Positions 14,210 through 63,880 are shown, counted from the stretch's first letter. The stretch: 64,000 nucleotides of DNA from Lentimicrobiaceae bacterium (GCA_031550085.1 JAVBOY010000022.1:62696-126695), one strand, 5' to 3'. Notes: generated from the letters alone by a model not told the origin. A program made the numbers and translations.

Positions 14210-14636
14210 TGTTGTTGAATGTTTAGAGTGAAATGTAAACAGTGAGGGGTGGGTTATTTGTTGAACTGTTGAATCGTTGAGTTGTTGAACTGTTTATTTG
14301 TAAGGTAACAAGTTTAGGGTTTACAGTTGACATTTGGTTGCCAAAAGGTTAAATAGGAGCTGTCCGATTTTAATTGAATAAGATAAATTAATCTAATGTT
14401 ATTCTATTTTAATCGCATAGGGGTACTTAAGTGAAACGTGAACAGTGAAGGGTGAGCTGACCTGTTTAATTGTTTATTGGGTGCAGGGTAAAAGGTGAAT
14501 GGAACAAGGTTTGTTATTCGTTTTTTGTTGTTCGCTTACTCGTCACCAAACCTCACTTTCAATTTTCCATTTTCAATTGAAAACTCGTTTACCAGTCTAC
14601 TCGTCAACGCGTTTACTAAACATTTTTAACTTTCAA
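14210..14636 (-). repeat. Intergenic mosaic repeat element, copy A
   Basis: 8-mer (ttgaactg/ttgagttg) and 7-mer (gtgaaNN, tttcaat) arrays, plus blocks shared with copies B and D. Confidence 0.9.
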
Positions 14637-15875
14637 CTATTTAAACTTCGGCAGATAATCCTTCATCATGTCTTTGTGTACCGCAAAATCCATCATTTTC
14701 AGTTTTACATAGTCTTCGTGGAAAAAGTAATACCCAAAGTTTTTATTTTTCTCTTTGCCACCCGTACGGCTTCCGGCTCCCGAATCTTTCACCAGAAACC
14801 AGGTTTTACCGTCCTTTTCCAGATAACCGACCAAATGCATTCCGTGGTCGTCGGTGGTGGTTTCGTTGCTGAAGCGGAATTGGCGTGCTTCGTCGTTAAT
14901 GTATTGCGAAGGAATATCATAGGAAGGAATCACGGCTGCATTGGCTTCGCGGGCTAAAAAGCCCGATTCCGATACATCGCCGCCGATGGAAAGGGTGTAG
15001 CCTTGTTTGATCGCCTTTTTCAGGATTTCCATATAGACATCCAACGGAACGTTGTAATAAGATTTATCGTGCCACCAGTTATCAGGAACTTCGTATTCAC
15101 ATTGTTTCCAGAAAGGCTGTTGCATATAACTCAATACATCGCAATAATCGTCCGGATTAAATTTGAGCACTTGTGTCATGTAATCTTTGGGCGAATACGT
15201 TTTTCCATTTACGGTAACCGTAGTGGGCGGCTCGCCGATATAATAATTGAGCAAGCTCTTTACATTGGCTATCATGGTTTTTTCATCCCAGATGTTGTTT
15301 TTTTTGCAAAAATCCAGGTAGGCCTTAAATTCATTGAATAGTTTTTCGTGGGTGTAAACTTTTTGTCCCGGAAGCAAGCCGGAATAAGCATCGTAGGGCA
15401 GGCAGCCATATTTTTTCATTTCGCGGGTAACGGCATTCCCTTCCGAACCTTCGCCGATGTTGATGTTTCCGCGTGTACGGATCCATTCCATCGTGCGCTC
15501 CAGGTATTCGTTGTAAACCGTAAACATTTCCGACAATTTTACTTTCTGTCCGGTAAGGCGGAAAATTTCACTTTCAACAAATGAGGTGGAAGCAAAGCAC
15601 CAGCAGGTATTGGTATTCCCCTGCGAAATGGGGTCGTTGTGCCAGAATTGGGTGAAATCCGCTTTATCCGCGGGAATGTTGTAGTTCGCCGGATCCGCTT
15701 TGAAGGCTTTGGTTGCTTTGGGCGTTTCTTTTTGCGATTGGAATTCTTCAATCCCTTTTAAAATGGTGTTTTGATAGTAGCCCGGTTCATAGGTTTTAAA
15801 AACAGCTTTGTCTTGTGCCTGAACAAATGGAAAGACGAAAAATGCGGATAAGGATGCAATGAAATATCGTTTCAT
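14637..15875 (-). CDS. C1-family (aminopeptidase C-like) exported cysteine peptidase
   Basis: QGNTNTCWCF (catalytic Cys) and DDHGMH (His) motifs, signal peptide. Confidence 0.88.
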   Translation of the reverse strand: MKRYFIASLSAFFVFPFVQAQDKAVFKTYEPGYYQNTILKGIEEFQSQKETPKATKAFKADPANYNIPADKADFTQFWHNDPISQGNTNTCWCFASTSFVESEIFRLTGQKVKLSEMFTVYNEYLERTMEWIRTRGNINIGEGSEGNAVTREMKKYGCLPYDAYSGLLPGQKVYTHEKLFNEFKAYLDFCKKNNIWDEKTMIANVKSLLNYYIGEPPTTVTVNGKTYSPKDYMTQVLKFNPDDYCDVLSYMQQPFWKQCEYEVPDNWWHDKSYYNVPLDVYMEILKKAIKQGYTLSIGGDVSESGFLAREANAAVIPSYDIPSQYINDEARQFRFSNETTTDDHGMHLVGYLEKDGKTWFLVKDSGAGSRTGGKEKNKNFGYYFFHEDYVKLKMMDFAVHKDMMKDYLPKFK

Positions 15876-15925
15876 AAAAATAAAGTTTTAAGCGCCAAAT
15901 GTAGAAATGTTTTCCTGTTCCGAAC

Positions 15926-15955
15926 AAAAAAAGCGGTGAAAATTTTCACCGCTTT
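15926..15955 (-). terminator. Terminator after pckA
   Basis: aaagcggtgaa/ttcaccgcttt stem plus U tract on the minus strand. Confidence 0.8.
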
Positions 15956-15976
15956 CACAACTCAAATTTTTGCCGT

Positions 15977-17599
15977 TTACACCTGAGGGCCTGCAGCGAC
16001 CAGGCGTTTCCCTTCGTCGTTGTCAGTATATTTTTCGAAATTGGCAATAAATTGTTGCGCCAAATCTTTGGCTTTGGCATCCCATTCGCTGCCGTTGGCA
16101 TACGTATCGCGCGGGTCAAGGATTTCCGGATTTACGCCTTTCAATTCGGTCGGAACTTCCAAGTTAAAGAAAGCGATTTTTTTACTGGGCGCCTGGTCGA
16201 TGGATCCGTTCAAAATGTTGTCGATAATAGCGCGGGTGTCTTTGATGGAAATGCGTTTTCCCGTTCCGTTCCAACCGGTATTTACCAAATACGCTTTGGC
16301 ACCGGCCGCTTCCATCCGTTTTACCAATTCGATAGCATACTTTGTGGGATGCAGCGACAAAAAAGCATTGCCGAAACAAGCCGAAAATGTGGGTTGGGGT
16401 GAAGTAATTCCGCGTTCCGTTCCGGCCAGTTTGGCCGTAAATCCCGACAGGAAATGATATTTCGTTTGATCAGCCGTCAATTTTGAAACCGGAGGCAAAA
16501 CGCCGAACGCATCTGCCGTCAGGAAGATGACTTTGGTGGCATGCCCGCCTTTGGAAACCGGTTTTACAATATTATGGATATGGTAAATCGGGTAAGAAAC
16601 CCGGGTATTCTCGGTTTTCGAACCATCGTTGAAATCGGGAGTTCCGTCGGGGAGAATCACCACGTTTTCTAACAGCGCATCGCGGCGGATAGCGTTGTAA
16701 ATGTCGGGTTCGTTTTCTTTGCTCAGGTTGATGGTTTTGGCATAACAACCGCCTTCGAAGTTGAAAACGCCGTCATCGTCCCATCCGTGTTCGTCGTCGC
16801 CGATTAGCAAGCGGTTCGGATCGGCCGACAGCGTGGTTTTTCCGGTTCCGGACAACCCGAAGAAGATGGCGACATCGCCTTCTTTTCCCATGTTGGCCGA
16901 GCAGTGCATGGAAGCGATCCCTTTCAACGGCAGGAAGTAGTTCATCATGGAAAACATCCCTTTTTTCATTTCGCCGCCGTACCAGGTGCCGCCGATCAGT
17001 TGAATGCGCTCGGACAGGTTGAAAGCCACAAAATTTTCGGAATGCAACCCTTGCTCTTTCCAGTTGGGATTGGTTGTTTTGGAACCGTTCATCACGATGA
17101 AATCGGGTTTAAAACCAACCAATTCCTCATCCGAAGGACGGATAAACATGTTTTTTACAAAATGGGCCTGCCAGGCAACTTCCATAATGAAGCGGACACT
17201 TAAACGGGTATCGGGATTGGCGCCGCAATAAGCGTCGACCACATACAGTTTTTTATCCGAAAGTTGTCGGGTTACCAATTCCTTTAATGATTTCCATACT
17301 TCGGGAGAGATGGGTTTGTTATCATTTTTTCCGATGGTCGACCACCAAACGGTGTTCTCGCTCACAGAATCTTTTACAATGTATTTGTCTTTGGGAGAAC
17401 GTCCGGTAAAAACGCCGGTATCCACGCTTACGGCGCCCAATGTCGACACGACTCCTTTCTCATACCCTTGCAGTCCGGGATTGGTTTCATGTTCAAAAAG
17501 GTCTTCGTAAGAAGGATTGTAGTAAATACCGGTTACCCCCTGGATGTTATATTGTTCTAAATCAATAATGCAGTTTTTTCGATTAATTGCTTGAGCCAT
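15977..17599 (-). CDS. pckA: Phosphoenolpyruvate carboxykinase (ATP)
   Basis: [25 protein letters not shown] and [10 protein letters not shown] motifs. Confidence 0.97.
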
Positions 17600-17766
17600 A
17601 GATAAGTATAGTTTTATGTGTTTAACGTTTCAAAGATAAAAAAACTTCGGTTACGAAAAATACCCGGCTTCATTTTCAAGAAAAAAAACATATTCGCCGA
17701 TGGTGAATGCAAGCCAGAAGTAAGTAGATCTGCAAAATAAAAATTTCAGGACGGAATCGAATTCGA

Positions 17767-18552: not shown

Positions 18553-18692
18553 GGAATGCGAATTTATTTTGCCTTCTTTTTACAAAATAAAGGAGCCTCA
18601 ACTAATGATTACACAAGAGCTTCGGTTAACCGATTTATCATACAATATAACCTGAAAGATCCGGGTTTGTTTGTAGGATTGCTGATCGGAGG

Positions 18693-22785: not shown

Positions 22786-22788
22786 GAA

Positions 22789-26283: not shown

Positions 26284-26658
26284 TTATTGAAAAAGTTGGA
26301 TTGTAAACCGTCCCAGGAAGGTGCAGGCCAACCCCAGCAAGATGCTGGCCAGAATATAGGCTACAGCCTGCATGTTTTCACCGTTCCGAAACAACAGGAA
26401 GGTTTCGTTCGAAAAAGCCGAAAAGGTGGTGAAACCACCCAGCAGTCCGGTGGCAATAAATAATTTCCATTCCTGCGGGACTTCGCTTTTTTCAACCATC
26501 CCGAAAAATAACCCGATGCAAAAACAACCGATCAGATTGACCGACAGGGTTGCAAAAGGAAAAGAGGTTTCCGTTTTGGTATTTACAAACAACGACAACA
26601 CATAGCGGAAAATTCCCCCGATAAAACTGCCCGTACCGACCAATAATAGCGCTTTCAT
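26284..26658 (-). CDS. crcB: Fluoride efflux channel Fluc
   Basis: GG..RY, TL.VN..GCF and GLLGGFTTFS motifs. Confidence 0.95.
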   Translation of the reverse strand: MKALLLVGTGSFIGGIFRYVLSLFVNTKTETSFPFATLSVNLIGCFCIGLFFGMVEKSEVPQEWKLFIATGLLGGFTTFSAFSNETFLLFRNGENMQAVAYILASILLGLACTFLGRFTIQLFQ

Positions 26659-26662
26659 GGTA

Positions 26663-27218
26663 TTTGAGTTGTTGAACTGTTTATTTGTGAAGTGTGAACC
26701 GTGAAGGGTGAAATGCCTGTTGAATTGTTTAATTGTTTAATTGTTTATTGGGTACAGGGTAAAAGGTGAATGAAACAAGGTTTGTTATTCGTTTTTTTTG
26801 TTCGTTTACTCATCACTCGTCACCCGTTACTCGTCACTAGTTTACTCATTAAATGCTTGCTTTTGTTTATTAGGATAATTAAATCTAATAATATTCTATT
26901 CTAATCGCATATCGTGAAACGTGGACAGTGAAGCGTGAAATGCCTGTTTAATCGTTTAACTGTTTAATTGTTTATTGGGTGCAGGGTAAAAGGTGAATGG
27001 TAAACTTGTTACCCGTAAACCTGTTAACGAATCATTTTCAATTCTCAATTCTCCATTTTCAATTATCTTGTTTACCCGTTACCCGTCACCAAACCTCACT
27101 TTCAACTTTTACTTTTCATTCGTAATTTTTAATTCTTAACTTTCAATTCTCCATTTTCAATTTTCAATTAAAACTCGTTTACTAGTCTACTCCTCAACTA
27201 GTCTACTAAAACAAAGTT
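26663..27218 (-). repeat. Intergenic mosaic repeat element, copy B (longest, internally duplicated)
   Basis: Two passes of gtgaa / tttaattg / gggtRcagggtaaaaggtgaatg, plus tttcaat, cgtYac and tagtctac arrays. Confidence 0.9.
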
Positions 27219-27680
27219 CTATAAATTTTTCAGCAGATTTGCCATTTCGATGGCCGACATGGCGGCGTCAAAACCTTTGTTACCCGCTTTGGTTCCGGCG
27301 CGTTCAATGGCTTGTTCGATGGTGTCGGTGGTCAGCACGCCGAAAATTACCGGAAACTCGGCTTGCAAATTTACAGCCGCAATCCCTTTGGTAACTTCGC
27401 CCGATACCATCTCGAAATGGGGCGTAGCGCCGCGGATTACCGCGCCCAGGCAAATCACTGCGTCATAGTTGCCGCTTTTCGCCATACGTTTGGCCACCAG
27501 CGGAATTTCAAACGAGCCGGGAACCCAGGCCACGGTAATGTTTTTTTCATCGCCGTCGTGGCGGCAAATGGCGTCGATGGCTCCAGACAGCAATTTTGAT
27601 CCGATTAATTCGTTAAAACGGCTTACAATAATTCCAAAACGCAAGCCTTTGGCAATTAGTTTTCCTTCAATTGTTTTCAT
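27219..27680 (-). CDS. ribH: 6,7-dimethyl-8-ribityllumazine synthase
   Basis: [23 protein letters not shown] and GNKG motifs. Confidence 0.97.
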
Positions 27681-27694
27681 AATTTATTTTTTTT

Positions 27695-28026
27695 TGTTGA
27701 GTTGTTGAACTGTTTATTTGTGAACGGTGAAGCGTGAAGTGATTGGATTAAGGTAAATGGTGCAAGGTGAACGGTACAGGGTGAAATGCCTGTTTAATCG
27801 TTTAACTATTTAATTGTTTATTTGTGAAGCGTGAACAGTGAAGGGTGAAATGCCTGTTTAATCGTTTAACTGTTTAATTGTATAAAACCCATTTTCAACT
27901 ATCAATTCTCCATTTTCAATTGAAAAGCCTTCTGCCTTCTGTAATTAAAAAAACTCGTTTACTGGTCTACTCGTTTACTTGTATCTAAAAAACACTTTCA
28001 ATTTTCAACTTTCCACTTTCAATTAA
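27695..28026 (-). repeat. Intergenic mosaic repeat element, copy C
   Basis: gggtgaaatgcctgtttaatcgtttaact occurs twice; also cttctgc, tcgtttac and tttcaa arrays. Confidence 0.9.
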
Positions 28027-29220
28027 CTACATCTGATGCCCCATCTTATTGATTTTGGTTTCCATGTATTTTTTATTGTTGTCGTTTGCTTGAATCACCA
28101 GGGGAATACGTTCTACGATCTCAATGCCGTATCCTTTTAATCCGTTCATTTTTAAGGGATTGTTTGTCATCAGGGTGATTCTTTTTACACCCAGGTTGGC
28201 CAGCATTTCCGAAGCCACGCCGTAATCGCGCAGGTCGGCGGGATAACCCAAGGCCAGGTTGGCCTCCACCGTATCCAAACCTTCTTCCTGCAATTCGTAA
28301 GCTTTCAGTTTATTGAGCAGGCCAATGCCGCGTCCTTCCTGGCGAAGGTACAACAAAATACCACGTCCTTCCTTTTCAATGCGTTGCAGTGATTCATGCA
28401 GTTGTTCGCCGCAATCGCAACGTTTCGAGCCGAAAATATCTCCCGTCAAGCATTCGGAGTGAATGCGCACCAGCACCGGCTCTTCGCCCGAAATATCTCC
28501 TTTGATCAAAGCCACATGATGTTCTTTGGTCACTTCATTCTGGAAGCCGACAATTTTAAAATCGCCGGTAACTGTGGGCATTTGGGCGACCGCTTTGCGC
28601 GACAGGAAATGTTCGTGCTGGCGGCGGTACTTGATTAAGTCGGCAATGGTAATGATTTTTAATTGATGCTTTTGGCAATATTCCATCAATTGCGGCACGC
28701 GCGCCATGCTTCCGTCTTCGTTCATGATTTCGCAAATCACACCGGCCGGTTGCATGCCCGCAAGCCGCGCCAAATCGACGGCAGCCTCGGTATGTCCGGC
28801 ACGGGCCAATACGCCGTAATTTTGAGCAATCAAAGGAAAAATATGCCCCGGACGGGTGAAATCTTCCGGTTTTGAATTCGAATCAACCAATCGCAAAATG
28901 GTTTCGGCACGTTCCTGTGCCGAAATACCTGTCGTTACGTCTTTCCAGTCGACCGAAACGGTAAAAGCCGTTTGTTTGCTATCGGTGTTTTTGGCTACCA
29001 TCGGATTGATCTGCAATTCGTTGAGCCGTTCGGCGGTCATCGGCATACATACCAGGCCACCAGCATGTTTCACCATAAAATTAATGATTTCCGGGCTTGC
29101 TTTTTCGGCAGCCACCACCAAATCCCCTTCGTTTTCGCGGTTTTCATCGTCTACCACCACCAGGGCTTTTCCGATACGAATGTCGTCCAAAGCCTCTTCT
29201 ATTGTATTAAATCTGTACAC
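28027..29220 (-). CDS. ribBA: Bifunctional DHBP synthase / GTP cyclohydrolase II
   Basis: [34 protein letters not shown] and QEGRGIGL motifs. Confidence 0.97.
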
Positions 29221-29237
29221 GTTATAATAAAATGTTT

Positions 29238-29888
29238 TTAAAAAAATCCGTTTTCTTTTAGTTTTTCCATTGTCAATCCTCCGCTCGGCGGAAGATTGCT
29301 TTCCGGTTTCATGAGTTTTTCAATGTATTTGCCGATCAGGTCACATTCGATGTTTACCTTTTCGCGGATGCGTTTGCTGCAAAGCGTAGTCTGGTTTCGT
29401 GTATGCGGGATAACCGATACGGTAAAATCCGTTTCCGATACGGATGCTACTGTCAGGCTGATTCCGTCAAGAGCGACCGACCCTTTTTCGATGATGTACC
29501 TTAAAAGAGAGGACTCGGCTGAAATCGTGATCCAAATGGCATTCTCGTCTTCCCGGAAGCTTTCAATAAGTCCTGTTCCGTCGATATGCCCGCTTACAAA
29601 ATGCCCGCCCAGGCGCGATGTCGGCAGCAAAGCGCGTTCCAGGTTCACACGGTCGTTGCTTTTCAGCAAATACAAATTCGACCGGTTCATGGTTTCAGGC
29701 ATGGCATCGGCAGCAAACGAGGTTCCGGAAATCCCGGTAACTGTCAAACAAACGCCGTTTACCGAGATGCTGTCTCCGATCCGAGTTTGGTTTAAAACCA
29801 GATCTGCGTTGATTTCCAGCACTGCCGAATGTGCTGCTTTGCGAATGGATTTCAGGGTGCCGATTTCTTCAATAATTCCTGTAAACAT
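29238..29888 (-). CDS. ribE: Riboflavin synthase (alpha chain)
   Basis: Canonical MFTGII N-terminus at 29888; [12 protein letters not shown] and GGHFVSGH motifs. Confidence 0.95.
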
Positions 29889-29890
29889 GG

Positions 29891-30994
29891 CTATTTGATT
29901 ACTTTTCCTTTGATTAAAAAATCTTGTCCCAACGTTTGATATGCTACTTGACAAAGTTTGACAGCATTTTCAATGGGGGCAAACCCTTTACCTTCGACCG
30001 GCGTAAGGGCGTCTTTCCCACCGATCAGCAAAGGTGCAATCAGGATTTGAACTTCATCTACAATTCCTGCTTGCAAAGCAGCTTCGTTCAAGGTGCCGCC
30101 GCCTTCGAGCAAAACACTGTCGATTGGCAGTTTGCCCAGTTCCACGACCAATGCATTCAGATCGACTTGTTTATTTGTTTGTGGAAGCACCCACACCAGA
30201 TGTCCCATTTCCGTCAATTGGCGCTGGATTTCTTCCGGGCATTGTTCTGTGGTGGCCAAAATCACCGGATTTTCACCGGGCGTTTGCAGCAATTTGGCAT
30301 TTAATGGGATGCGCCCTTGACTGTCTACCACAATCCGGCGGGGATTGCGCCCGCCTTCGGGCAACCGGCAAGTTAATTCCGGGTTGTCGATCAGTACCGT
30401 ATTTACGCCGACCATAATAGCCGAAAATTCGTTGCGCAGCCGATGTACGTAATTTTGCGATTCCGGGCCGGTAATCGGGCTGGGAAGATTTAAATGCGTT
30501 GAAATCTTTCCGTCCAGCGACATGGCGGTTTTCATCAGCACATACGGCCTTTTTTGAGTCATATATTTGAAAAATACCCGGTTTTGTTCAAGGGCTTCGG
30601 TTTCGCACAAGCCGGTAACTACTTCGATGCCTGCAGCCTGCAATTGTGCGATGCCTTTTCCGTTTACCAACGGATTGGGATCGGTGGCGGCTATAAAAAT
30701 TTTGCTGATTTTATTTTTGATCAGTAAATCGGTGCAGGGTGGCGTTTTGCCAAAGTGGGAGCAAGGTTCGAGGGTTACATAAATGGTGGCGCCTTCGACG
30801 GGTCCGGAGGATTGGGCAATGGCATTGACTTCGGCATGGGGACCGCCGAAATATTCGTGGTATCCTTTCCCGATGATTTTTCCATCGCGTACCAAAACCG
30901 CACCCACCAGCGGATTGGGATTTACTTTCCCTTTTCCGAGGTTGGCCAGTTCAATGGCTTGAAGCATGAAATTGCGGTCGTTGGTGGTTTCCAT
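29891..30994 (-). CDS. ribD: Bifunctional pyrimidine deaminase/reductase
   Basis: PNPLVG, HAE, TLEPCSH.GKTPPC and EGGG motifs. Confidence 0.96.
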   Translation of the reverse strand: METTNDRNFMLQAIELANLGKGKVNPNPLVGAVLVRDGKIIGKGYHEYFGGPHAEVNAIAQSSGPVEGATIYVTLEPCSHFGKTPPCTDLLIKNKISKIFIAATDPNPLVNGKGIAQLQAAGIEVVTGLCETEALEQNRVFFKYMTQKRPYVLMKTAMSLDGKISTHLNLPSPITGPESQNYVHRLRNEFSAIMVGVNTVLIDNPELTCRLPEGGRNPRRIVVDSQGRIPLNAKLLQTPGENPVILATTEQCPEEIQRQLTEMGHLVWVLPQTNKQVDLNALVVELGKLPIDSVLLEGGGTLNEAALQAGIVDEVQILIAPLLIGGKDALTPVEGKGFAPIENAVKLCQVAYQTLGQDFLIKGKVIK

Positions 30995-31030
30995 AAAATA
31001 AAAATCCCGAACAATTTAAATCATTCGGGG
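30995..31030 (-). terminator. Riboswitch-controlled intrinsic terminator
   Basis: Minus strand reads cccgaa...ttcggg followed by atttttatttt, immediately before the ribD ATG. Confidence 0.7.
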
Positions 31031-31084
31031 CGCATCATCTCAAAACCGTCACACAAAACAATTGATTTTGCGTGAGTTGAGCAG

Positions 31085-31215
31085 ATTCTTCTACCATCCA
31101 GACTTTACTGTCGGTAACGGAATTTCACCGTTTCGGTCTTCCTTTTTGAGTAAGATTCGCGGACTGTCACCGCCGGTTGGGACTTATGCCTTGCATTCAC
31201 CCGACCCCGAAGAAT
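31085..31215 (-). ncRNA. FMN riboswitch (RFN element)
   Basis: Minus strand: attcttcggggtcgggtgaa...tcccaaccggcggt..agtccgcga...cggtgaaattccg..accgacagtaaagtctggatggtagaagaat. -7 box TACCTTTG at 31223-31230. Confidence 0.95.
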
Positions 31216-31390
31216 TAGACTGCAAAGGTAAAACTATTTTTTGCTTTTTACCGATCCGGCTATTAAAAAAAGCAAAACCATACGCCGGTTTGCTTTGTGG
31301 AGTCATTTTGTTGTGTCCATAAATCATTGGAAGCTTAAAAAAAGTACATTTGCAACGTTAAATTTGTTATTCCATTTTTTATAAAACACA

Positions 31391-40848: not shown

Positions 40849-40877
40849 AAAAAAGCAGCCTGCGGGCTGCTTTTTTT
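40849..40877. terminator. Bidirectional terminator
   Basis: aaaaaagcagcc-tgcg-ggctgctttttt. Confidence 0.85.
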
Positions 40878-40921: not shown

Positions 40922-41354
40922 GAGTTGAACTGTTTAATTGTTTATTTGGTGAAATGGGTAAATAGGGGAAAACGGGGAAGTTGTGGAAATGGTTAAAGGT
41001 GCAAGGTCAACGGTAGAGAGTGAAATGGTTGTTGAATTGTTGAACTGTTGAATTGTTTATTTGTAAGGTAACAAGTTTATGGCTTACAGTTAACATTTGG
41101 TTGCCAAAAGGTTAAATAGGAACCTGTCCGATTTTGATTGAATGAGATAAATTAATCTAATATTATTCTATTTTAATCGCATAACGTGAAATGCTTGTTT
41201 AATCGTTTAACTGTTTATTTGTGAACGGTGAAAAGTGTTGTTTTTTGTTGTTCGTTGTTTGCTTGCCTCAACTCCATTTTCAATTTTCCACTCTCAATTT
41301 TCAATCAAAAACCCGTTTACTAGTCTACTTGTTAACTGTTACCTCATAAACCAT
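40922..41354 (-). repeat. Intergenic mosaic repeat element, copy D
   Basis: About 95-bp block shared with F and about 130-bp block shared with A, joined by an 8-mer array. Confidence 0.9.
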
Positions 41355-42656
41355 TTAGACTTCCAGGTATTTGGTATTTATTTTTGATTTATACAGCAAA
41401 AACACCTCGAAACAGCTTCCTTTACCCAGCTCGCTGCTCACCTTTACTTTGCCGCCGTGCGCCTCCACAATGGTTTTTACATAAAACAATCCCAAACCGA
41501 AGCCTTTCACATCATGCACTTTTCCGGTGGGGACCCGGTACAATTTGTTGAAAATAAGCTTTTGATTTTCCCCACTGATGCCGATTCCGCAGTCAGAAAT
41601 GGAAATGGTGATTCCCGCATCGTTAGAAGTCGTTGTTAACGTGATATTGGGGCTTTCCGGAGAATATTTATTGGCATTTTCGAGTAAATTATTAATCACA
41701 TTTTCAATATGGAGTTTGTCGGCAAAAAGAATCGACCGGCTGGCTTTCAGATTAACGCTCAACTGCCCGCAACGCTCCTTCATTGTCAATTGGAAATTTT
41801 CAGCAATGTTCCGGATCATATCATGCAAATCGAATTCCGAAAGCTTAAATTTCAATTTCCCTTTTTCAAAGGCCGAAGTTTGCAATACCTGTTCCACCTG
41901 CGATTTTAAGCGCGCATTTTCATCGTAAATAATCCGCACATACTTTCTCGTTTTTTCTTCCGAAGCCAGTATCGACGAGTTTTGCAACATTTCGCTGGCC
42001 AGGGAAATCGTGGCAATCGGCGTTTTAAACTCGTGGGTCATGTTGTTGATGAAATCGTTTTTCATATCGGCCAGTTTTTTGTGCTGCAAAAAGCGCCAAA
42101 CCGTATAGCCCACGCAAAGCACCAATACGGTAATCAATACGCCGCTCAATATAATACCCGGAAGGATTTTCCGCCATACATACGTATTTTCGTTGGGGAA
42201 ATAGGCGGCCAAAACAAAGGTACAATCATCGCACAACAAACTCAATCCCACAAAGTGGGGCGATTTCATCAACTGGTCTTTTGCCGACATGCTCGAGATT
42301 TCCAGTAAAGTCGAGTCGCTTTTGTTAATGATGCCGTAAACATATTTTTCCGATGAAATGCCGACGGCCGTAAACTCGACACTTACCAACGAGTTGAGTA
42401 CGACTTTGTTAAAGGTGGGAGAGATTTCCAAATTCTGATGCAACGTATCGCTGGTAGGGCCTACTTCCAGGCGGCAGAGGTTGTTTTTTACAAAAATCTG
42501 GTTTACAACACTTTTTAATGCAACGTTTATTTTGTTATTAAAATTATTCTCTTCCAGTTGGTAGACATTCCGGATCCAGTAAAATTGAAGCAAAACAATA
42601 CCCAACAGCGTGATACTCAATATACTGATTATGGTGATAAAAGTCTGTTTTTTCAT
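41355..42656 (-). CDS. Sensor histidine kinase (RprX-like)
   Basis: Two TM helices, THEFKTP H-box, NANKY, D.GIGI and GFGLGL motifs. Confidence 0.92.
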   Translation of the reverse strand: MKKQTFITIISILSITLLGIVLLQFYWIRNVYQLEENNFNNKINVALKSVVNQIFVKNNLCRLEVGPTSDTLHQNLEISPTFNKVVLNSLVSVEFTAVGISSEKYVYGIINKSDSTLLEISSMSAKDQLMKSPHFVGLSLLCDDCTFVLAAYFPNENTYVWRKILPGIILSGVLITVLVLCVGYTVWRFLQHKKLADMKNDFINNMTHEFKTPIATISLASEMLQNSSILASEEKTRKYVRIIYDENARLKSQVEQVLQTSAFEKGKLKFKLSEFDLHDMIRNIAENFQLTMKERCGQLSVNLKASRSILFADKLHIENVINNLLENANKYSPESPNITLTTTSNDAGITISISDCGIGISGENQKLIFNKLYRVPTGKVHDVKGFGLGLFYVKTIVEAHGGKVKVSSELGKGSCFEVFLLYKSKINTKYLEV

Positions 42657-45145: not shown

Positions 45146-45405
45146 GAATTATGAATTAAAAATTACGAATGAGTTTTAGATACAAGTAAACGGGTTTTTA
45201 ATTACAGGAGGCAGAAAGGAAAAAGCAGAAGGCGGAAAGCATTTAAGATACAAAATAAACAATTAAACAGTTAAACGATTAAACAGGCATTTCACTCTTC
45301 ACGCTTCACAAATAAACAATTAAACAGGCATTTCACTCTTCACTGTTCACCCTTCACAAATAAACAGTTCAACAACTCAACAATTCAATAAACATCCATT
45401 TCACA
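45146..45405 (+). repeat. Intergenic mosaic repeat element, copy E
   Basis: Reverse complement of the A-D modules; caaataaacaattaaacaggcatttcactcttcac-type unit repeated. Confidence 0.9.
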
Positions 45406-45435
45406 TTACAAAAATCACATTAAACCCAAAATACA

Positions 45436-47616
45436 TTGACCGAAAATCCGCTATTTGTCGCAAAAACCTATGCCGGGCTTGAAGAAGTTTTGGCCAACGA
45501 ACTCACCCAATTGGGAGCCGGAAACATTGAAGTGTTGACCCGAGCCGTGGAATTTACCGGCGACCAGAAACTTATGTACGCCGCAAACTACAATTGCCGT
45601 ACTGCATTGCGCGTCTTGAAATCCCTGCACCGCTTCGAACTGGATAACGAAGACGATTTGTATTTGAATGTAAACCGTTTTCCCTGGGAACAATACTTTT
45701 CCATCCAACAAACCTTTGCCGTGGATGCCGTGGTGTTTGATTCGGAAATGACCCATTCGCACTTTGTAGCGTTGCGAACCAAAGACGCCATTTGCGACCG
45801 CTTCCGCGAGAGAAATAACGGCCGCCGCCCGTCCGTGGATACCGACAATCCCGATTTCCGGGTTCACATACACATTAGTCAAAATGCCTGCGATATCCAA
45901 CTGGACAGTTCCGGCGCTTCGCTGCACAAACGCGGCTACCGGGTTTCAAATGCCGAAGCTCCTCTGAGCGAAGTTTTGGCCGCCGGCTTGGTTTTATTGA
46001 GCGGTTGGAAGAAAAACTGCCAATTTATCGATCCCATGTGTGGTTCGGGCACTTTGCTGATCGAAGCCGCTTTGATCGCCAACAACATTCCTTGCGGCAT
46101 GTACCGGAAAGATTTCGGTTTTATGTATTGGAACGATTTCGACCGCGACCTGTTTGAAGAAGTCAAAGCCGAAGCGTTTGACCGGCAAACCGAATTCGAG
46201 TACGAAATTGTAGGCTATGATATTTCATCCAGAAACCTTTCGGCTGCCAAGGCCAATGTAAAAGCCGCCAAGTTGCACAAAGACATCCAATTGCAGGTTG
46301 CAGACATCCGCAATCTGACGCTGGATTTCGAGCAACCCGGATACCTTATTACGAATCCGCCTTACGGCGAACGGGTTAAATCCGATGATATCGTTGGATT
46401 GTACCGGGACCTGGGAGATGTGTTAAAGAAAAATTTCCAGAATTATACCGCTTGGGTGATTAGCGCCGATTTTTGGGCCTTGAAAAACATCGGGCTGAAA
46501 TCCTCGCAAACCCTCAATGTATGGAACGGTCCATTGGAATGCAAAGTGTTGAAGTTTGAATTGTATCAGGGATCGAAGAAAGGGAAATACCTGAGCCGGG
46601 AAGAAGAAGGAATGCAGAAAGCAGAAAGCAGAAGGAATAAAATAGAGGAAGCAGGGGAAATGGAGGATGAACACCGAATGCCGAAAGCGAAAAACAAAAG
46701 GGATAAAATAGAGGAAGCAGGGGAAATGGGGGAATCACCTTGGATGCAGAAAGCAGAAGGCAGAACGGAAAGCTTTTCGAAAGTAAAACGCGACCGGGGC
46801 GATCTGGGTAAATCCTTAAGCCGTCAAGAAAAACAAGACCTTCGAAGGAAATTCTTCACGGATGGAGAATCCGAAAATATGGGAGAAAAGGGCGCTTTTT
46901 CAAAAGAAAAAGAATCTTTTGCCGAGCGTAAATCAAGAAGTTTCGACAGGAAAGAGGATAAACCCTTTGGCGAACGTAAACCCCGGAGTTTTTACAACAA
47001 GGAAGACAAACCCTTTCGCGAACGCAAACCACGTAGTTTTGACAACAAGGAAGACAAACCCTTTCGCGAACGCAAACCACGTAGTTTCGACAACAAGGAA
47101 GACAACCCTTTTGGTGAACGAAAATCAAGAAGTTTCGACAGGAAAGAAGATAAACCCTTTGGTGAACGTAGACCCCGTAGTTTCGACAACAAGGAAGCCA
47201 AACCTTTTCGCGAACGCAAACCACGTAGTTTCGACAACAAGGAAGCCAAATCTTTTGGTGAACGTAAACCTCGAAGTTTCGATCGAAAAGAAGACAAACC
47301 TTTTCACGAACGCAAACCCCGGAGTTTTGATAAAAAGGAAGACAAGCCTTTCCGCGAACGTAAACCCCGGAGTTTTGATAAAAAAGAAGACAAACCTTTT
47401 CGCGAACGTAAACCCCGGAGTTTTGACAAAAAAGAAGATAAACCTTTTAAAGAGCGAAAATCAAGCGGTTTCGATAAAAAGGAAGACAAACCCTTGACGG
47501 CAGGGCGCAAATCGTTTATCGAGCGCCGTTCATTCGAACGCCCGCCGCTGGAAGGAGAAAAAGTCTATTTCAACGACAAATCCGAAAAAAAGCAACGCCC
47601 GCGCACAAAAAAATAA
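45436..47616 (+). CDS. THUMP-domain rRNA m2G methyltransferase (RlmL/YpsC-like) with a long repetitive C-terminal tail
   Basis: GLEE.L..EL, DSSG.SLHKRGYR, DPMCGSGT and NPPYGER motifs. The catalytic part ends at about residue 380 of 726. Confidence 0.9.
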   Translation: MTENPLFVAKTYAGLEEVLANELTQLGAGNIEVLTRAVEFTGDQKLMYAANYNCRTALRVLKSLHRFELDNEDDLYLNVNRFPWEQYFSIQQTFAVDAVVFDSEMTHSHFVALRTKDAICDRFRERNNGRRPSVDTDNPDFRVHIHISQNACDIQLDSSGASLHKRGYRVSNAEAPLSEVLAAGLVLLSGWKKNCQFIDPMCGSGTLLIEAALIANNIPCGMYRKDFGFMYWNDFDRDLFEEVKAEAFDRQTEFEYEIVGYDISSRNLSAAKANVKAAKLHKDIQLQVADIRNLTLDFEQPGYLITNPPYGERVKSDDIVGLYRDLGDVLKKNFQNYTAWVISADFWALKNIGLKSSQTLNVWNGPLECKVLKFELYQGSKKGKYLSREEEGMQKAESRRNKIEEAGEMEDEHRMPKAKNKRDKIEEAGEMGESPWMQKAEGRTESFSKVKRDRGDLGKSLSRQEKQDLRRKFFTDGESENMGEKGAFSKEKESFAERKSRSFDRKEDKPFGERKPRSFYNKEDKPFRERKPRSFDNKEDKPFRERKPRSFDNKEDNPFGERKSRSFDRKEDKPFGERRPRSFDNKEAKPFRERKPRSFDNKEAKSFGERKPRSFDRKEDKPFHERKPRSFDKKEDKPFRERKPRSFDKKEDKPFRERKPRSFDKKEDKPFKERKSSGFDKKEDKPLTAGRKSFIERRSFERPPLEGEKVYFNDKSEKKQRPRTKK
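46612..46768 (+). repeat. 66-bp coding repeat (about 2.4 copies) containing gcagaaa heptamers
   Basis: Units start at 46612, 46678 and 46744 (MQKAESRRNKIEEAGEM / MPKAKNKRDKIEEAGEM / MQKAEGR). Confidence 0.8.
46924..47499 (+). repeat. 12 x 48-bp coding tandem repeat (ERKPRSFDxKEDKPFx)
   Basis: Counted 12 units of 16 aa in the translation; variation is largely synonymous or conservative. Confidence 0.95.
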
Positions 47617-48945: not shown

Positions 48946-49305
48946 TTGAAAGTTGAGAATGGAAAATTGAAGTTGATTCGTTAACAGGTTTACGGGTAAT
49001 AAGTTTACCATTCACCTTTTACTCTCCTGTACCAATAAACAATTCAACAACTCAACGATTCAACAGTTCAACCGACTACTCACCGTTCACAAATAAATGA
49101 TTAAACAGGCATTTTACTTTATGCGATTAAAACAGAATAATATTAGATTTAATTATCGTAGTCAAAAAAAATAAGGTTACTCCTATTTCACCCTCTACCG
49201 TTGACCTTGCACCTTTAACCATTTCCACAACTTCCCCGTTTTCCCTATTTACCCATTTCACCAAATAAACAATTAAACGATTAAACAGACATTTCACCTT
49301 TCACT
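48946..49305 (+). repeat. Intergenic mosaic repeat element, copy F
   Basis: Blocks shared (reverse complement) with B (49 bp) and D (about 95 bp). Confidence 0.9.
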
Positions 49306-49323
49306 CAAAAACTAAATAACAAT

Positions 49324-57867: not shown

Positions 57868-57940
57868 ATTTCATGCTGAGGTTAAACAAAATCTAAATAT
57901 CCGTTGTTGTAATATCAGTTTTTTAAATATTGTTTTTTAT

Positions 57941-59986: not shown

Positions 59987-60009
59987 TCGTGGCGTGTAAT
60001 AGTGGTTCC

Positions 60010-61152: not shown

Positions 61153-61408
61153 AGCCGTATTTTTTTGATAAAATTAAAAAAAAATCAAGTTGTTATCTCC
61201 GGATTTTAGTAACGAAACAGGAAATCAAATTCAAATCAAATTTTCCGCAGAGGAATCCCACTGAATCGTACCATGCATTCAGCCCCTGATAAAACTCCTT
61301 TTTGGGGGTGGAATTTCGGAAAATCCGAGCCTAGTTTTGCTGAAAAATTTCGAAACGGCGGATTCCGAAAAGCCAACGAGTAGGAGCTAATTTAAATTTA
61401 TTATTTTC

Positions 61409-61957
61409 ATGAAAAAACTGCTTATTTTATGTGTTGCATTGTTTATCGGTGCACCGTTTGTATCGGCCCAAACTCCTACTTTTTGGGGGAAAGACAAAGT
61501 GGCTGGAATTGCAATAGGGTTCGGTAGTAACTTATATTCGGGTGTATTTTATACTGATGTAAAAACTACTCCTGCAATTTTGGGCCAGTTTGAATTATGT
61601 ATAAAAGATAACTTGTTTAACGACAAAAGTTCCATCGGTGTTGGTGGTATTATCGGTTATTCTTCTGCAAAAATCAGCAATGTATGGAAACGATCCAACT
61701 TTATTATTGGCGGGCGTGGAGTTTTCCATTATGCATTGGTTGACAAATTGGATACCTATGCAGGTTTAATGTTAGGGTATAATATTGTAAAATATAAATG
61801 GGAAGGAGGACTCGAAGTAAATAATACGAGCAGTAGTGGTGTAGTTCATTCGGAGTTTATCGGTGCCCGTTATTACTTTACCGATAATTTTGCTGCATTC
61901 GGTGAATTAGGGTATGGATATACATTCCTTAATTTAGGAGTTGCCTTGAAATTCTAA
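61409..61957 (+). CDS. Small outer-membrane beta-barrel protein
   Basis: Signal peptide, alternating beta strands, C-terminal F (GARYYF...ELGYG...GVALKF). Confidence 0.8.
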   Translation: MKKLLILCVALFIGAPFVSAQTPTFWGKDKVAGIAIGFGSNLYSGVFYTDVKTTPAILGQFELCIKDNLFNDKSSIGVGGIIGYSSAKISNVWKRSNFIIGGRGVFHYALVDKLDTYAGLMLGYNIVKYKWEGGLEVNNTSSSGVVHSEFIGARYYFTDNFAAFGELGYGYTFLNLGVALKF

Positions 61958-62038
61958 AAACGAATCTCCCTTTTCTGAAAAAGTTCGCCCATGGTGGCGG
62001 ACTTTTTTTTATCTTCGCCTTTTCAAGCACGTTATCGC

Positions 62039-62575: not shown

Positions 62576-62584
62576 AAAATATTC

Positions 62585-63073
62585 ATGTTTATACGAACCC
62601 AATCCATCGCAAATAAAAAATTAATCGGAATGTGTTTGCAAATGACTTTTGCAAATAATTTGACAACAAAACTCTGGCAGAGTTTTATGCCCCGCCGGCA
62701 TGAAATTACCAATGCCGCAAACCAATTGCTTTATTCAATACAAATATACCCGGAAACCTTTGATTTTAACCATTTCGATTTCAACCGGCCGTTCGAAAAA
62801 CGGGCAGCGGTAGAAGTTGCCGATTTCAGCAAAGTTCCGGAAGGAATGAAGGCCTTTGTATTGCCGGGCGGCTGGTACGCGCTTTTTTTGCATGCCGGGG
62901 CCCCGCAAGAAGGAGAACGGACATTCCGGTATATTTTTGAAGAATGGCTGCCCCAGTCGGGTTTTGTATTGGATCCGGCACGACCCCACTTTGAAGTGTT
63001 GGGGAAAAAATATAAAAACAATGCGCCCGATTCGGAAGAAGAAATCTGGATTCCCATAAAAAAACAAGTATGA
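62585..63073 (+). CDS. GyrI-like effector-binding protein
   Basis: LWQSFM, G.YA.F.H.G, YIFEEWLPQSG, RPHFE and EEEIWIPI motifs. Confidence 0.88.
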   Translation: MFIRTQSIANKKLIGMCLQMTFANNLTTKLWQSFMPRRHEITNAANQLLYSIQIYPETFDFNHFDFNRPFEKRAAVEVADFSKVPEGMKAFVLPGGWYALFLHAGAPQEGERTFRYIFEEWLPQSGFVLDPARPHFEVLGKKYKNNAPDSEEEIWIPIKKQV

Positions 63074-63110
63074 GCTATTTATTTTGATTACTTTTACATA
63101 AAAAATCAAA

Positions 63111-63626
63111 ATGAAACCCATCCTTCTTCTCATTCTGTCTTTCTTTTTTGGCTCAGCAGCGTTAAACGCGCAACAACTTCCTTTAGCTACCGAATACCCG
63201 AAAAAACAACTGGACTCCCTGTTAAATCGTTATTATTCGCAGGAAGCAAATGACATTAACCAGCCGCCGCAAACCGTACTGAACCGGTTTCAGGAGCATT
63301 TTCCAAAAGCCCGCGAAATCGATTGGGAAACGTACGATTACTTTTACGAAGCCGATTTTGAACAAAACAACGTCGACATCGTTGCTTTGTACGATTCGAA
63401 GGGAAATTTGCTCATGTGCCTGGTCGATATTACGAACCGTGACATTCCGGATGCTGTGAAAAAATCCGTGAATAACCGTTACAAAGGCTGGCGGATTGAC
63501 GATGCCGAAAAAATGTGCACCGCATATGAAACCCAATACCGGATTTACCTCGAAAAAAGTGGAAAAGAATTGAAAACCTTTTTTACCGACCGAGGCGAAT
63601 TTATTTCAGAAACGCCTCGTAATTAG
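63111..63626 (+). CDS. PepSY-like (BLIP-like/DUF2874) periplasmic protein
   Basis: Signal peptide and two P..V...F...(F/Y)P-type repeats with YEADF and YDSKG. Confidence 0.75.
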   Translation: MKPILLLILSFFFGSAALNAQQLPLATEYPKKQLDSLLNRYYSQEANDINQPPQTVLNRFQEHFPKAREIDWETYDYFYEADFEQNNVDIVALYDSKGNLLMCLVDITNRDIPDAVKKSVNNRYKGWRIDDAEKMCTAYETQYRIYLEKSGKELKTFFTDRGEFISETPRN

Positions 63627-63880
63627 TAGACAAGTTGACGAGAATTTCTTAATTACGAATGAAAATTTACGAATTACGAGTGTGTTTTTAACGCCGAATC
63701 TCTGTGCAACTCTGTGAATCCTCAGTGATCTCTGTGTAACTTTTTAAGGCAGAAAGGAAAAAGCAGAAAGGGTTTTAGACACAAATAAACAATTAAACAG
63801 TTCAACAATTCAACAAGCTACTCACCCTTCACTGTTCACGCTTCACAATTAAACAGTTCAACAACTCAACAATTGAGCAA
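63627..63880 (+). repeat. Intergenic mosaic repeat element, copy G
   Basis: gtagac/ttgacgag, aattacg, ctctgtg, gcagaaa, aaacaatt and ttcac arrays. Confidence 0.88.

Follow-up and report, generated by a model that had tools for sequence, protein, structure and literature searches.

Why seven repeat-like elements in one 64,000-nt stretch of Lentimicrobiaceae DNA (the window) should each lie against a stop codon, and all point the way of the gene they follow, is the question that this locus raises. The positions of the seven are as an earlier note on the window had placed them (Table 1), and the elements that follow minus-strand genes (A to D) are indeed the reverse complement of those that follow plus-strand genes (E to G), so that all seven are co-oriented with the upstream gene. 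The junctions it had quoted are also right, the MiaB-like TAA being followed by ttgaaagttgagaatgg (element F), the thioesterase TGA by gaattatgaatt (E), the PepSY-like TAG by tagacaagttgacgag (G) and the TAG before element A by ttgaaagtt.

Table 1. Elements of the window, with their M6 modules and the hairpin next to element A
Feature	Position	Strand	Context
Element A	14228..14636	−	directly 3' of the TAG of gene 14637-15875(-); then hairpin and T-run
Hairpin and T-run after element A	14181..14203	−	by eye: agctgctttggggcggct then ttttttt
Element B	26659..27218	−	whole spacer, ribH stop to crcB ATG at 26658
Element C	27681..28026	−	whole spacer, ribBA stop to ribH ATG at 27680
Element D	40922..41354	−	after histidine-kinase gene 41355-42656(-)
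Element E	45146..45435	+	thioesterase TGA to RlmL-like gene start at 45436
Element F	48946..49323	+	MiaB-like TAA to ATG at 49324
Element G	63627..63885	+	PepSY-like TAG to ATG at 63886
M6 module in element A	14381..14419	−	unique, non-periodic: TATGCGATTAAAATAG..TATTAGATT..ATTATC
M6 module in element B	26874..26911	−	
M6 module in element D	41146..41183	−	
M6 module in element F	49120..49157	+	

Elements and their flanking genes

At element C the stop TAG runs into ttaattgaaag, and elements B and D begin about 10 nt past the ribH TAG and about 18 nt past a TAA, respectively. The MiaB-like, thioesterase and PepSY-like gene identities are upheld by Pfam; the gene before element A, named a peptidase in the earlier note, has no Pfam match at 1e-5 and so that name is not confirmed. 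The stop codon of this gene sits at its native position, the same as in G055 and the relative G017, and the MiaB-like C-terminus before element F (ending in KGELV) gives a length equal to that in the relative G031. The TAG before element G is itself inside a block common to another copy. The ribBA-ribH junction shows a gain within an operon: its spacer is 10 nt in G031 against the 346 nt of element C, which here lies behind an FMN riboswitch. Downstream of element D there is a terminator-like, bidirectional hairpin (40849-40876); the hairpin after element A is absent from a consensus scan, which gave 14111-14096(-) instead. Searches of Rfam 15 returned no element match at the gathering score across the whole window, and none at E <= 1 for 26600-28100.

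A genome-wide family of mosaic arrays

The seven elements are best read as members of a family of mosaic heptamer and octamer arrays that is specific to the lineage and spread across the genome. The family has at least 212 loci and covers 62,856 bp (~63 kb), about 2% of the 3.19 Mb genome of this gut bacterium, with matches on a single strand in all but 2 of the 212 loci. Only 2,324 of the 62,856 element bases lie inside genes, as called by a simple purpose-made caller that may have misplaced some start codons. Arrays are 250-1000 nt long and combine, in mosaic fashion, a large variety of 7- and 8-nt units with unique modules, the tandem units being of the types TTGAAAA/TGGAGAA, GTAAACG/GTAGACN and TTCACNN at 7 nt, and GCAGAAAG and TTMAACNN at 8 nt; TRF reports tandem repeats with periods of 7 and 8 nt, in 2-6.6 copies, in every one of the window elements. 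One of the unique modules, M6, is present in 111 genome copies whose mean pairwise identity is 76%, while their flanks reach only about 40-44%, and contains the half-site GATTAAA(A/T)T twice, at a distance of 21 bp; a consensus RNA structure was sought for M6 and none was found. Nested GC-rich hairpin modules seen in some arrays are separate inserts. The arrays also break assemblies.

Placement and orientation

That the 5' end of the elements lies at native stop codons is borne out genome-wide, with stop positions kept for MiaB and for the gene before element A. Among the 78 co-oriented spacers where the onset of element 11-mers was measurable, it falls within the last part of the CDS in 34 and coincides with the stop codon in 17; it lies 0-5 nt past the stop in 13, at 6-20 nt in 13 and further in just 1, and so the stop codon is within element sequence in 51 of the 78. 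The array 3' end is placed at a median of 6 nt upstream of the next start codon. The arrays occupy transcribed spacers, mostly co-directional junctions lacking the usual −7 motif, or stretches from a stop codon to a terminator. The −7 motif TAnnTTTG is present in 11% of 82 co-oriented element spacers versus 41% of 586 element-free tandem spacers. Metatranscriptome RNA contigs, which cannot give strand or continuity across a whole element, extend from the gene into element C (27991-31201) and join the 3' end of element E to the downstream gene (45357-46100).

The earlier note offered a refuting outcome, orientation tracking the replichore rather than the gene, and this is not what the genome displays. 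Between co-directional genes 101 of 121 element-bearing spacers (83%; binomial p = 3e-14) are co-oriented, and orientation set against GC skew genome-wide gave 78 leading and 66 lagging copies (p = 0.36), with co-oriented copies split 16 to 17 at |skew| >= 0.02. The window's own contig has positive skew throughout and carries both element orientations. The anti-oriented copies, about one in six, fill their spacers equally completely.

Composition and folding

The description of the sense strand as G-rich in its 5' part and C-rich in its 3' part holds at the 3' end for all seven window elements (G 3-12% and C 22-30% in the last 40%) and at the 5' end for six, where G exceeds C in the first 40%; it fails for the 5' part of element F because the G-rich part there is only about 60 nt. 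Along the elements the share of G drops from 22.7% to 7.0% and that of C climbs from 10.3% to 31.3%, A making up 37% and T 27%, and the order of G then C is seen in 84 of 110 element spacers, the order of C then G in none. The shared G/C skew relative to transcription that the earlier note listed is not independent evidence of orientation, since G-then-C polarity is unchanged by reverse complementing: the skew is the same on both element strands, and anti-oriented copies show it too. The sole mark of the sense strand in composition is A>T.

From −80 to +20 of the start codon mean folding energy is −5.5 kcal/mol with a co-oriented element, −12.3 with an anti-oriented element and −12.8 with no element, and ATG/GTG/TTG triplets number 0.93, 2.58 and 3.11, respectively. 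In the 80 nt past the stop there are 7.2 stop triplets with a co-oriented element versus 3.9 without an element. Four of five window leaders of 140 nt fold at −1.0 to −8.3 kcal/mol, and whole sense strands fold far less strongly than antisense strands (−48 versus −77 and −43 versus −68). Sense folds are no better than those of shuffled sequences (z mostly −1.9 to +2.2), so the low structure comes from base composition and not from arrangement. With a 3' half that is rich in C, poor in G and nearly devoid of RNA structure, the role or selection at the RNA level suggested earlier is plausible.

What the arrays may do

The account to which we tentatively lean, at somewhat short of even confidence, is that the arrays are transcribed mosaics with a stop-dense 5' half and an open 3' leader, and that selection keeps their co-orientation. 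The arrays would be read through as part of the mRNA, where the C-poor 5' half would spell only words of T, A and G, and the 7- and 8-nt periods would bring a stop codon into each of the three frames. The 3' half, poor in G and rich in A and C, would be unable to spell start codons and would barely fold, so serving as an unobstructed leader suited to initiation in Bacteroidota, which is Shine-Dalgarno-independent. The relative G017 has a stop codon, G-type heptamers, C-type heptamers and a start codon in that order, and its C-type units differ. Selection would keep co-orientation in that an open leader may be had from the A-rich strand only, and not from the U-rich strand. Since relatives do not need the arrays, these are best seen as self-propagating repeat DNA, which may survive in sites and in an orientation that gene expression tolerates or mildly gains from. 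The mosaic sharing of blocks suggests that they are copied through recombination or template switching, and not moved as one defined unit by cut-and-paste.

Against this stand the 20 of 121 tandem copies that are anti-oriented yet fill their spacers, and the relatives that do without arrays, which leave any benefit putative. The leaders of the anti-oriented copies are no worse than ordinary element-free ones, and selection to remove them could thus be weak. This account explains neither the conservation of M6 nor the precise siting at stop codons.

A broader reading, which we consider unlikely, would have the arrays as an evolved translation punctuation, a general grammar for intergenic tandem heptamers and octamers in bacteria with little Shine-Dalgarno use. 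C-free units would be set against stop codons and G-free units against start codons, and a period not divisible by three would make sure that each of the three frames repeatedly meets a stop word, or repeatedly lacks a start word. Each array would then be an intercistronic insulator joined to an open landing pad, and a copying process with its end point set by the stop codon might spread arrays between spacers.

That the arrays are instead purely selfish, non-autonomous mobile DNA, placed and oriented by their insertion mechanism (for instance a single-strand Y1/HUH transposase or a transcription-coupled process) with no part in expression, is also improbable. The family is lineage-specific, with only the (TTGAAAA)n module matched, and that in only 5 of 44 other genomes of the bacterial family, and with no matches to M6 in two large collections. 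Blocks of 150-560 nt, 86-98% identical, are common to unrelated spacers, and one shared block ends precisely at a CDS boundary in both orientations; element B matches the spacer C18:56266-56872 with 86% identity across 558 nt, and a 146-nt block of element G recurs, inverted and with 98.6% identity, at C18:129482-129872. The genome has five full-length Y1_Tnp genes, and the absence of terminal inverted repeats and target duplications would fit Y1-type transposition. However, the arrays are without terminal hairpins, and of four short Y1_Tnp genes with flanks examined, three are bordered by their own, different, REP-like hairpin repeats and one by an ordinary array on one side only, which argues against the arrays as RAYT-flanking repeats. 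Further, Y1 elements orient with replication and the arrays do not, blocks are shared in mosaic fashion and not unit by unit, and a single mobile family does not explain how the relative's G-type-then-C-type architecture is built from other units.

Rho-dependent attenuation, by which the 3' half would act in the sense orientation only as a putative rut-like loading site that lowers downstream transcription or ends transcripts, seems less probable still. In composition and folding the 3' parts, whose C-rich, G-poor character extends for more than 100 nt with hardly any structure, resemble the unstructured, untranslated RNA, rich in C and poor in G for some 80 nt or more, that marks a rut site; the genome has a rho gene with an RNA-binding domain, and co-orientation goes with genes. 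Most arrays, though, lie directly before a start codon in apparent operons without a −7 motif of their own, where strong termination would silence needed genes, and the array behind the FMN riboswitch within the ribBA-ribH operon argues against strong constitutive termination. Elements A and D have hairpin terminators of their own downstream, and the anti-oriented strand too ends in G-poor, C-containing (TTTTCAA)n, so that an excess of C over G does not explain the orientation bias.

Least favoured among these, and in our view very unlikely, are multivalent binding arrays, with the 7-8 nt units as putative sites for an abundant single-strand RNA binder (a cold-shock protein or ribosomal protein S1) or for a DNA-binding protein. 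Strict short periodicity speaks for them, as does an M6 that is conserved well above its flanks without a consensus RNA fold and whose two half-sites would be a putative specific protein site. The same octamer units are found in 18 unrelated metagenome contigs and (TTGAAAA)4 recurs across many phyla, which a widely conserved partner could explain; S1, Csp and CsrA have been proposed for TAACTGA heptamers (PMC4679880). The many different unit sequences inside one array count against it.

Further origins are not supported. The insertion from an RNA template proposed in the earlier note, and a retroelement origin at large, find no support in view of 3' ends that are C-type units and not A-tails, of the anti-oriented copies and of zero RVT_1 (PF00078) matches in a 97.7% complete genome, a binned assembly of the sort that can miss mobile genes. 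A MITE is rejected, as in 105 spacers the first 40 nt scored 6.8 against the reverse-complemented last 40 nt (shuffled tails 6.4), and, with element boundaries taken as spacer ends, the longest word common to both ends was 3.76 nt versus 3.82 nt in random pairs. REP/BIME-RAYT elements (REPINs) are rejected for want of palindromic hairpins, since folds match shuffles and M6 is without consensus structure.

Significance

A heptamer orientation bias is known from few lineages and has so far only been described (PMC4679880). Here one genome offers more than a hundred natural cases of arrays replacing whole operon junctions. The 83% strand preference, the composition rule (C-poor with many stops, then G-poor with few starts), the placement at stop codons and the parallel in G017 together offer a lead on what such repeats, long a puzzle, may do, and narrow the question to Shine-Dalgarno-free initiation, Rho polarity and the copying mechanism. 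Array repeats can also mislead the annotation of starts and stops.

Comparison with known systems

BIME/REP elements are extragenic module mosaics of enterobacteria, often in operons or 3' untranslated regions, co-transcribed and in hundreds of copies. As extragenic mosaics of recurring modules with hundreds of copies the arrays are like them, and so they are in their frequent position within operons or 3' untranslated regions and, probably, in being transcribed along with the genes. Each REP, however, is a short, imperfect palindrome that occurs in inverted pairs and depends on a RAYT gene, whereas the arrays here are non-palindromic and are not the repeats at this genome's RAYT-like genes. 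STRR heptamers are the short tandemly repeated repetitive arrays of heterocystous cyanobacteria. Head-to-tail units of 7 and 8 nt, confinement to spacers and an orientation bias, the features of STRR- and TAACTGA-like arrays, are all found here.

BrickBuilt (PMC4596501) is a Porphyromonas gingivalis MITE with an internal minisatellite, present in 19 copies at 49-591 nt from coding sequences, with 23-nt units, leader and tail subunits, small inverted-repeat ends and bidirectional promoter activity. Both are Bacteroidales repeats with internal tandem units, strictly intergenic and species-limited, but the arrays have 7-8 nt units, no inverted ends and few promoter motifs, and abut coding sequences. 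Bacteroidetes do not use SD sequences, favour unstructured leaders and are depleted of AUG near starts (PMC6847099); the 3' half of co-oriented arrays exaggerates this low pairing, scarcity of AUG and high A, although what is set out there concerns the 20 nt or so around the start codon in normal leaders and not long repeat arrays.

Heptamers of Nostoc are located near start codons (bioRxiv 10.1101/2022.06.06.494920), and as spacer arrays near start codons or promoters, of unknown function, they are similar to those here; (TTGAAAA)4 itself is present in Nostoc, Trichormus and Microcoleus records. The cyanobacterial arrays belong to another phylum and are simple rather than ordered mosaics, and they are not known to fill spacers from stop to start. 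Closest are the TAACTGA repeats of Beggiatoaceae, Cyanobacteria and a few Bacteroidetes (MacGregor 2015, PMC4679880), also tandem 7-nt units that are nearly always intergenic, biased in orientation relative to ORFs and patchy in phylogeny, with no known mechanism or function. They too hold stop codons in three frames in one orientation, and may overlap the upstream stop and end a few nt before a start codon. Theirs is one unit type in sets of 2-6 copies (up to 43), whereas the arrays here are mosaic, G-type then C-type, spacer-filling and as much as 2% of a genome.

Seven arrays and their genomic family

The seven elements of the window, A to G, belong to a lineage-specific, polar and mosaic family of heptamer and octamer units that takes the place of transcribed spacers, reaching from the native stop codon nearly to the start codon that follows, and that prefers the orientation of the genes independently of replication. 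Repeat finding and direct reading of the 64-kb window place each of A to G directly downstream of a same-strand gene (7/7), as the earlier note claimed, and the stop-codon junctions quoted there are correct on direct reading; its "peptidase" before A is unconfirmed, that gene having no Pfam match at the threshold used. All seven contain short period-7 and period-8 arrays (TRF), and B, C, E, F and G each span their spacer completely, stop codon to start codon. An FMN riboswitch (99.3 bits) heads an operon of ribD, ribE, ribBA, ribH and then crcB, and two arrays are embedded in this riboswitch-controlled operon. A hairpin with a T-run 3' of A was seen by eye and is absent from the list of the consensus scan, and a terminator-like hairpin lies 3' of D.

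Other features of the window include a DUF805b RNA motif match (36.3 bits against a gathering score of 35.6) and, in the RlmL-like methyltransferase gene, in-frame tandem repeats (a 48-nt unit x12 and a 66-nt unit x~2) with only a sub-threshold Pfam Fibrinogen_BP match there. A 1497-aa ORF holds four repeats spaced 468 nt, 65-72% identical to a reference copy over 200 nt, and from its sequence looks like a repetitive large protein.

Features of the window, which is C18:62696-126695, and of the rest of its genome (positions are those of the window unless a contig, C8 to C60, is named)
Feature	Position	Strand	Context
A	14228-14636	-	preceding gene without Pfam match at 1e-5
B	26659-27218	-	ribH before, crcB after (Pfam)
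C	27681-28026	-	ribBA before, ribH after (Pfam)
D	40922-41354	-	histidine kinase gene before (Pfam)
E	45146-45435	+	thioesterase before, RlmL-like methyltransferase after (Pfam)
F	48946-49323	+	MiaB-like radical-SAM enzyme gene before (Pfam)
G	63627-63885	+	PepSY-like protein gene before (Pfam)
1497-aa ORF	7364-11857	-
Repeats of the 1497-aa ORF	9057-10660
ribE	29238-29954		downstream of FMN riboswitch
ribD	29891-30994		downstream of FMN riboswitch
FMN riboswitch	31082-31218	-	heads rib operon
Terminator-like hairpin	40849-40876		3' of D
RlmL-like gene	45436-47616		after E
In-frame tandem repeats	46610-47492	+	3' third of RlmL-like gene
DUF805b motif match	61355-61386	+	upstream of gene 61409-61957
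RNA contig	27991-31201		riboswitch through ribBA into C
RNA contig	45357-46100		E joined to next gene
Contig ends within arrays (examples)	C17:132-212; C19:139-288; C46:3-424; C48:1-235; C49:1-153
Paralogous genes	C42:2557-3288; C8:72499-73326		244 aa and 276 aa
RAYT-like Y1-transposase genes	C60:21555-22648; C51:2481-3794; C41:54372-55216		flanked by own hairpins
Nested hairpin modules (examples)	C18:9841-10122; C18:12302-12740; C25:77079-77818

A BLAST search of the genome (3.19 Mb, 60 contigs, 97.7% complete) with the seven elements yields 212 loci totalling 62,856 bp, with matches confined to one strand in all but two. Several contigs begin or end within an array, so that 212 is a lower bound, and the arrays rank among the main causes of fragmentation of this assembly.

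Orientation follows the gene

With genes called by a simple hexamer-scored ORF picker (2,381 genes, 86% coding), 155 of the 178 loci of at least 80 bp are flanked by called genes on both sides. Tandem spacers, between co-directional genes, hold 100 of these in the orientation of the genes and 22 in the opposite one, with 21 in convergent and 12 in divergent spacers. Tested genome-wide, elements are co-oriented in 101 of the 121 tandem spacers holding at least 60 nt of element (p = 3e-14), and so the co-orientation seen in the window is real and strong. The anti-oriented cases are also real, their flanking genes scoring well, and these elements fill their spacers as completely as the co-oriented ones do. 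An origin of the orientation in the replichore is ruled out: GC skew is coherent along contigs and yet the strand of the elements shows no relation to it (78 leading vs 66 lagging, p = 0.36), with co-oriented copies at |skew| >= 0.02 split 16 vs 17, and the contig of the window has positive skew throughout, yet A-D and E-G lie on opposite strands.

Composition is a different matter. The earlier note had described G/C skew along transcription, and the pattern itself is there: in the last 40% of each element the sense strand has 3-12% G and 22-30% C (7/7), and in the first 40% G exceeds C in six of seven, F being the exception. Across 108 well-covered spacers, oriented by element, G falls from 22.7% to 7.0% and C rises from 10.3% to 31.3% between the first and last fifths, with A (about 37%) and T (about 27%) steady. 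However, the reverse complement of a G-rich-then-C-rich sequence is also G-rich-then-C-rich, so the polarity appears whichever way the element points, also in spacers that are convergent or divergent, and it fails as evidence of orientation. Read on the plus strand, 84 of 110 element-filled spacers of 200-1200 nt run G-then-C and none C-then-G (the rest being 8 C,C, 4 G,G and 14 weak); element-free spacers have a weaker lean the same way (62 against 24, out of 516). What truly marks the sense strand is A>T.

Boundaries at stop and start codons

Boundaries were mapped with 11-mers common to the interiors of at least two other arrays (background in coding DNA 0.3%), for which 78 of 81 co-oriented tandem spacers were measurable. 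The element starts inside the end of the called CDS in 34, at the stop codon in 17, 0-5 nt past it in 13, 6-20 nt past it in 13 and further away in one; in 51 of the 78 the stop codon in use is thus itself part of the array. MiaB has exactly the ending ...KGELV* of the relative G031, and the protein encoded before A shares its ending ...PKFK* with the relative G055, with the array running from the very next base in both, so placement is not only a matter of ORF extension. At the 3' side the array ends a median of 6 nt upstream of the start codon, with no displaced remnant of an older spacer beyond. Features of a MITE are absent: neither terminal inverted repeats at the array ends nor flanking direct repeats around them were found.

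Block sharing and candidate mechanisms of spread

Blocks of 135-560 nt at 77-99% identity are common to spacers in a mosaic pattern. B matches a spacer 33 kb away at 86% identity over 558 nt, and G has 146 nt in common, at 98.6% identity, with an inverted copy 3 kb away; the first bases of this block are G's own TAG stop codon, and in the inverted copy the block starts 1 nt from the start codon of an other-strand gene. One high-scoring pair is a duplicated gene plus its array: two paralogues are 95% identical over 351 nt, a stretch made up of the 3' part of the gene and the adjoining 220 nt of its array, and this is a segmental duplication with the array carried along.

RNA-templated insertion, one of the interpretations offered earlier, finds no support, with no RVT_1 (reverse transcriptase) match in the 97.7% complete genome. 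The link to RAYT proteins is weak. Y1_Tnp has 7 matches, 5 of them full-length ORFs; of the four short ORFs (148-174 aa) whose flanks were read, three carry their own REP-like hairpin clusters unlike the heptamer arrays, as is classic for REP/RAYT systems, and the fourth has an ordinary array, upstream only. A mobile element would fit the block sharing and the precise termini; the defining ends and enzymes are absent, and the different units of the relative G017, described below, do not fit.

GC-rich hairpin modules, among them a CUUG/GUAA-loop double hairpin and the 'tcatttcgactggagcgaagcgaaatgg' hairpin, are nested in numerous arrays, mostly within the G-rich half or where G-rich gives way to C-rich sequence, and look like separate small inserts; the nested hairpin of G017 arrays is a different one.

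Relatives and other lineages

Of the relatives found, G031 is the closest by ribH (67% identity), and its ribBA-ribH spacer measures 10 nt, against 346 nt here, filled by C. This is the sole clean before/after comparison, as MiaB and thioesterase synteny is not conserved in relatives; the MiaB-downstream spacers of four relatives are ordinary and AT-rich, and the PepSY-like gene has no match in five relatives. (TTGAAAA)n is the only module with matches among the genomes of 44 further species of the family, and 5 of these have it. The non-periodic module M6, inside some arrays, has 111 copies in this genome, and its exact pattern has no match in the genome or metagenome collections. As a structured RNA M6 gives no consensus fold, as a promoter it has no TAnnTTTG-type motif by eye on either strand, and its mini-ORF (ATG CGA TTA AAA TAG) is unconserved, many copies having CAG for TAG and ACG or GTG for ATG.

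Elsewhere the same architecture is built from other units. In G017 (MiaB 79% identical), where 17 loci with (TTGAAAA)n were read, the typical spacer runs from stop codon through G-type heptamers (TTGAAAA, TGGACAA, TGGTTAA) with nested GC-rich hairpins to C-type heptamers unlike those here (CCATTAA, CATGCAC, CAATCAA, CTTCTAC, AGCACTA) and the start codon; judged by crude ORF calls, 10 of the 17 loci agree with the genes in orientation, 5 oppose them, 1 is divergent and 1 unclear, a split without significance. For (TTGAAAA)4 there are at least 123 loci, spread over many phyla, among them Bacteroidota, Thermoanaerobaculia, the candidate phyla radiation and Cyanobacteria, and the examples read have UUGAAAA against a stop codon or UUUUCAA against a start codon. 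For 80 such loci in other phyla a crude ORF rule gives mixed, ambiguous classes, with 24 opposite-strand gene starts vs 11 same-strand gene ends at the array. The octamer array TTCAACAACTCAACGATTCAAC occurs in 18 metagenome contigs, frequently behind its own complement, so that a G-type arm is succeeded by a C-type one, as in a spacer that separates a stop codon from the start of a gene read as EF-Ts. This order of complementary octamer arms, seen in unrelated environmental contigs (L182, L184, L185 and L186), is a potential hairpin.

Promoter context, RNA properties and expression

The motif TAnnTTTG, which we take to be the -7 promoter consensus, lies upstream of MiaB in the four relatives. 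Scanned over the last 200 nt or less of each spacer or side, it occurs in 11% of 82 co-oriented and 20% of 15 anti-oriented element spacers, against 41% of 586 element-free tandem spacers and 57% of 512 element-free divergent sides; this scarcity suggests that most arrays sit at operon-internal junctions.

The sense strand of F folds at -48.4 kcal/mol (z = -0.7) vs -77.3 for the antisense, and that of C at -43.5 (z = +2.2) vs -68.1. As z-scores near zero show, this low structure is due to composition; a long hairpin joining the G-rich and C-rich halves is ruled out in this genome, since sense folds are no better than shuffles, and no element has an Rfam match. Leaders from -120 to +20 fold at -7.3 (B), -8.3 (C), -4.2 (E), -1.0 (F) and -15.0 (G) kcal/mol.

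Leader and post-stop properties genome-wide (-80 to +20 windows: 113 co-oriented, 31 anti-oriented, 1110 with no element)
Property	Co-oriented	Anti-oriented	No element
Mean folding energy, -80 to +20 (kcal/mol)	-5.5	-12.3	-12.8
ATG/GTG/TTG triplets, -80 to -1	0.93	2.58	3.11
Stop triplets, 80 nt past stop	7.2	6.6	3.9
Three frames all closed within 30 nt	30%	43%	5%

Expression was read from contigs of two public runs of one study, labelled invertebrate gut metagenome, one DNA and one metatranscriptome. Depth over genes is flat in DNA (55-59) and ranges from 6.7 to 190 in RNA, so the RNA library is not simply DNA. One RNA contig extends from the riboswitch across ribBA and 36 nt into C, and another links the final 79 nt of E with the gene that follows; such contigs break at repeats and carry no strand, transcript-end or level information.

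Interpretation and relation to known repeats

Of the earlier interpretation, the connection with genes stands, and so does a constraint that probably acts at the RNA level. The arrays would be co-transcribed with their genes, the C-poor half may serve as a three-frame stop zone and the G-poor, A/C-rich half as an open leader with few start codons, and selection on the mRNA would keep the A-rich orientation. An open, start-poor leader suits Bacteroidota, in which Shine-Dalgarno sequences are ignored, unstructured leaders favoured and AUG depleted near start codons (PMC6847099). Alternatively the arrays could load Rho, the gene for which is present; their composition fits this and their operon context does not. 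As relatives do without the arrays, we regard the latter as self-propagating DNA that is filtered for compatibility with expression and may be of modest benefit to it. A role as mRNA leaders explains neither the copying of arrays, nor their exact placement at stop codons, nor the conservation of M6.

Outside subscription journals and supplements we found in print neither ordered G-type-then-C-type mosaics, nor stop-to-start filling by repeats, nor a reverse-complement-invariant polarity. A survey ranks tandem heptamers as the most abundant periodic repeats of prokaryotic intergenic DNA, without known function (PMC6344855), a regulatory role is discussed, with no mechanism given, for heptamers close to Nostoc start codons (bioRxiv 10.1101/2022.06.06.494920), and the Bacteroidales MITE BrickBuilt, from P. 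gingivalis, combines a 23-nt minisatellite with inverted ends and promoter activity (PMC4596501). The closest description is that of MacGregor's TAACTGA heptamers, which (PMC4679880) are intergenic, ORF-oriented and patchily distributed, put stops into three frames, in some cases overlap the stop codon of the preceding ORF and are proposed to bind S1, Csp or CsrA. The present arrays are a variant of a known but unexplained kind of repeat, and their main interest is that they make the heptamer puzzle testable.
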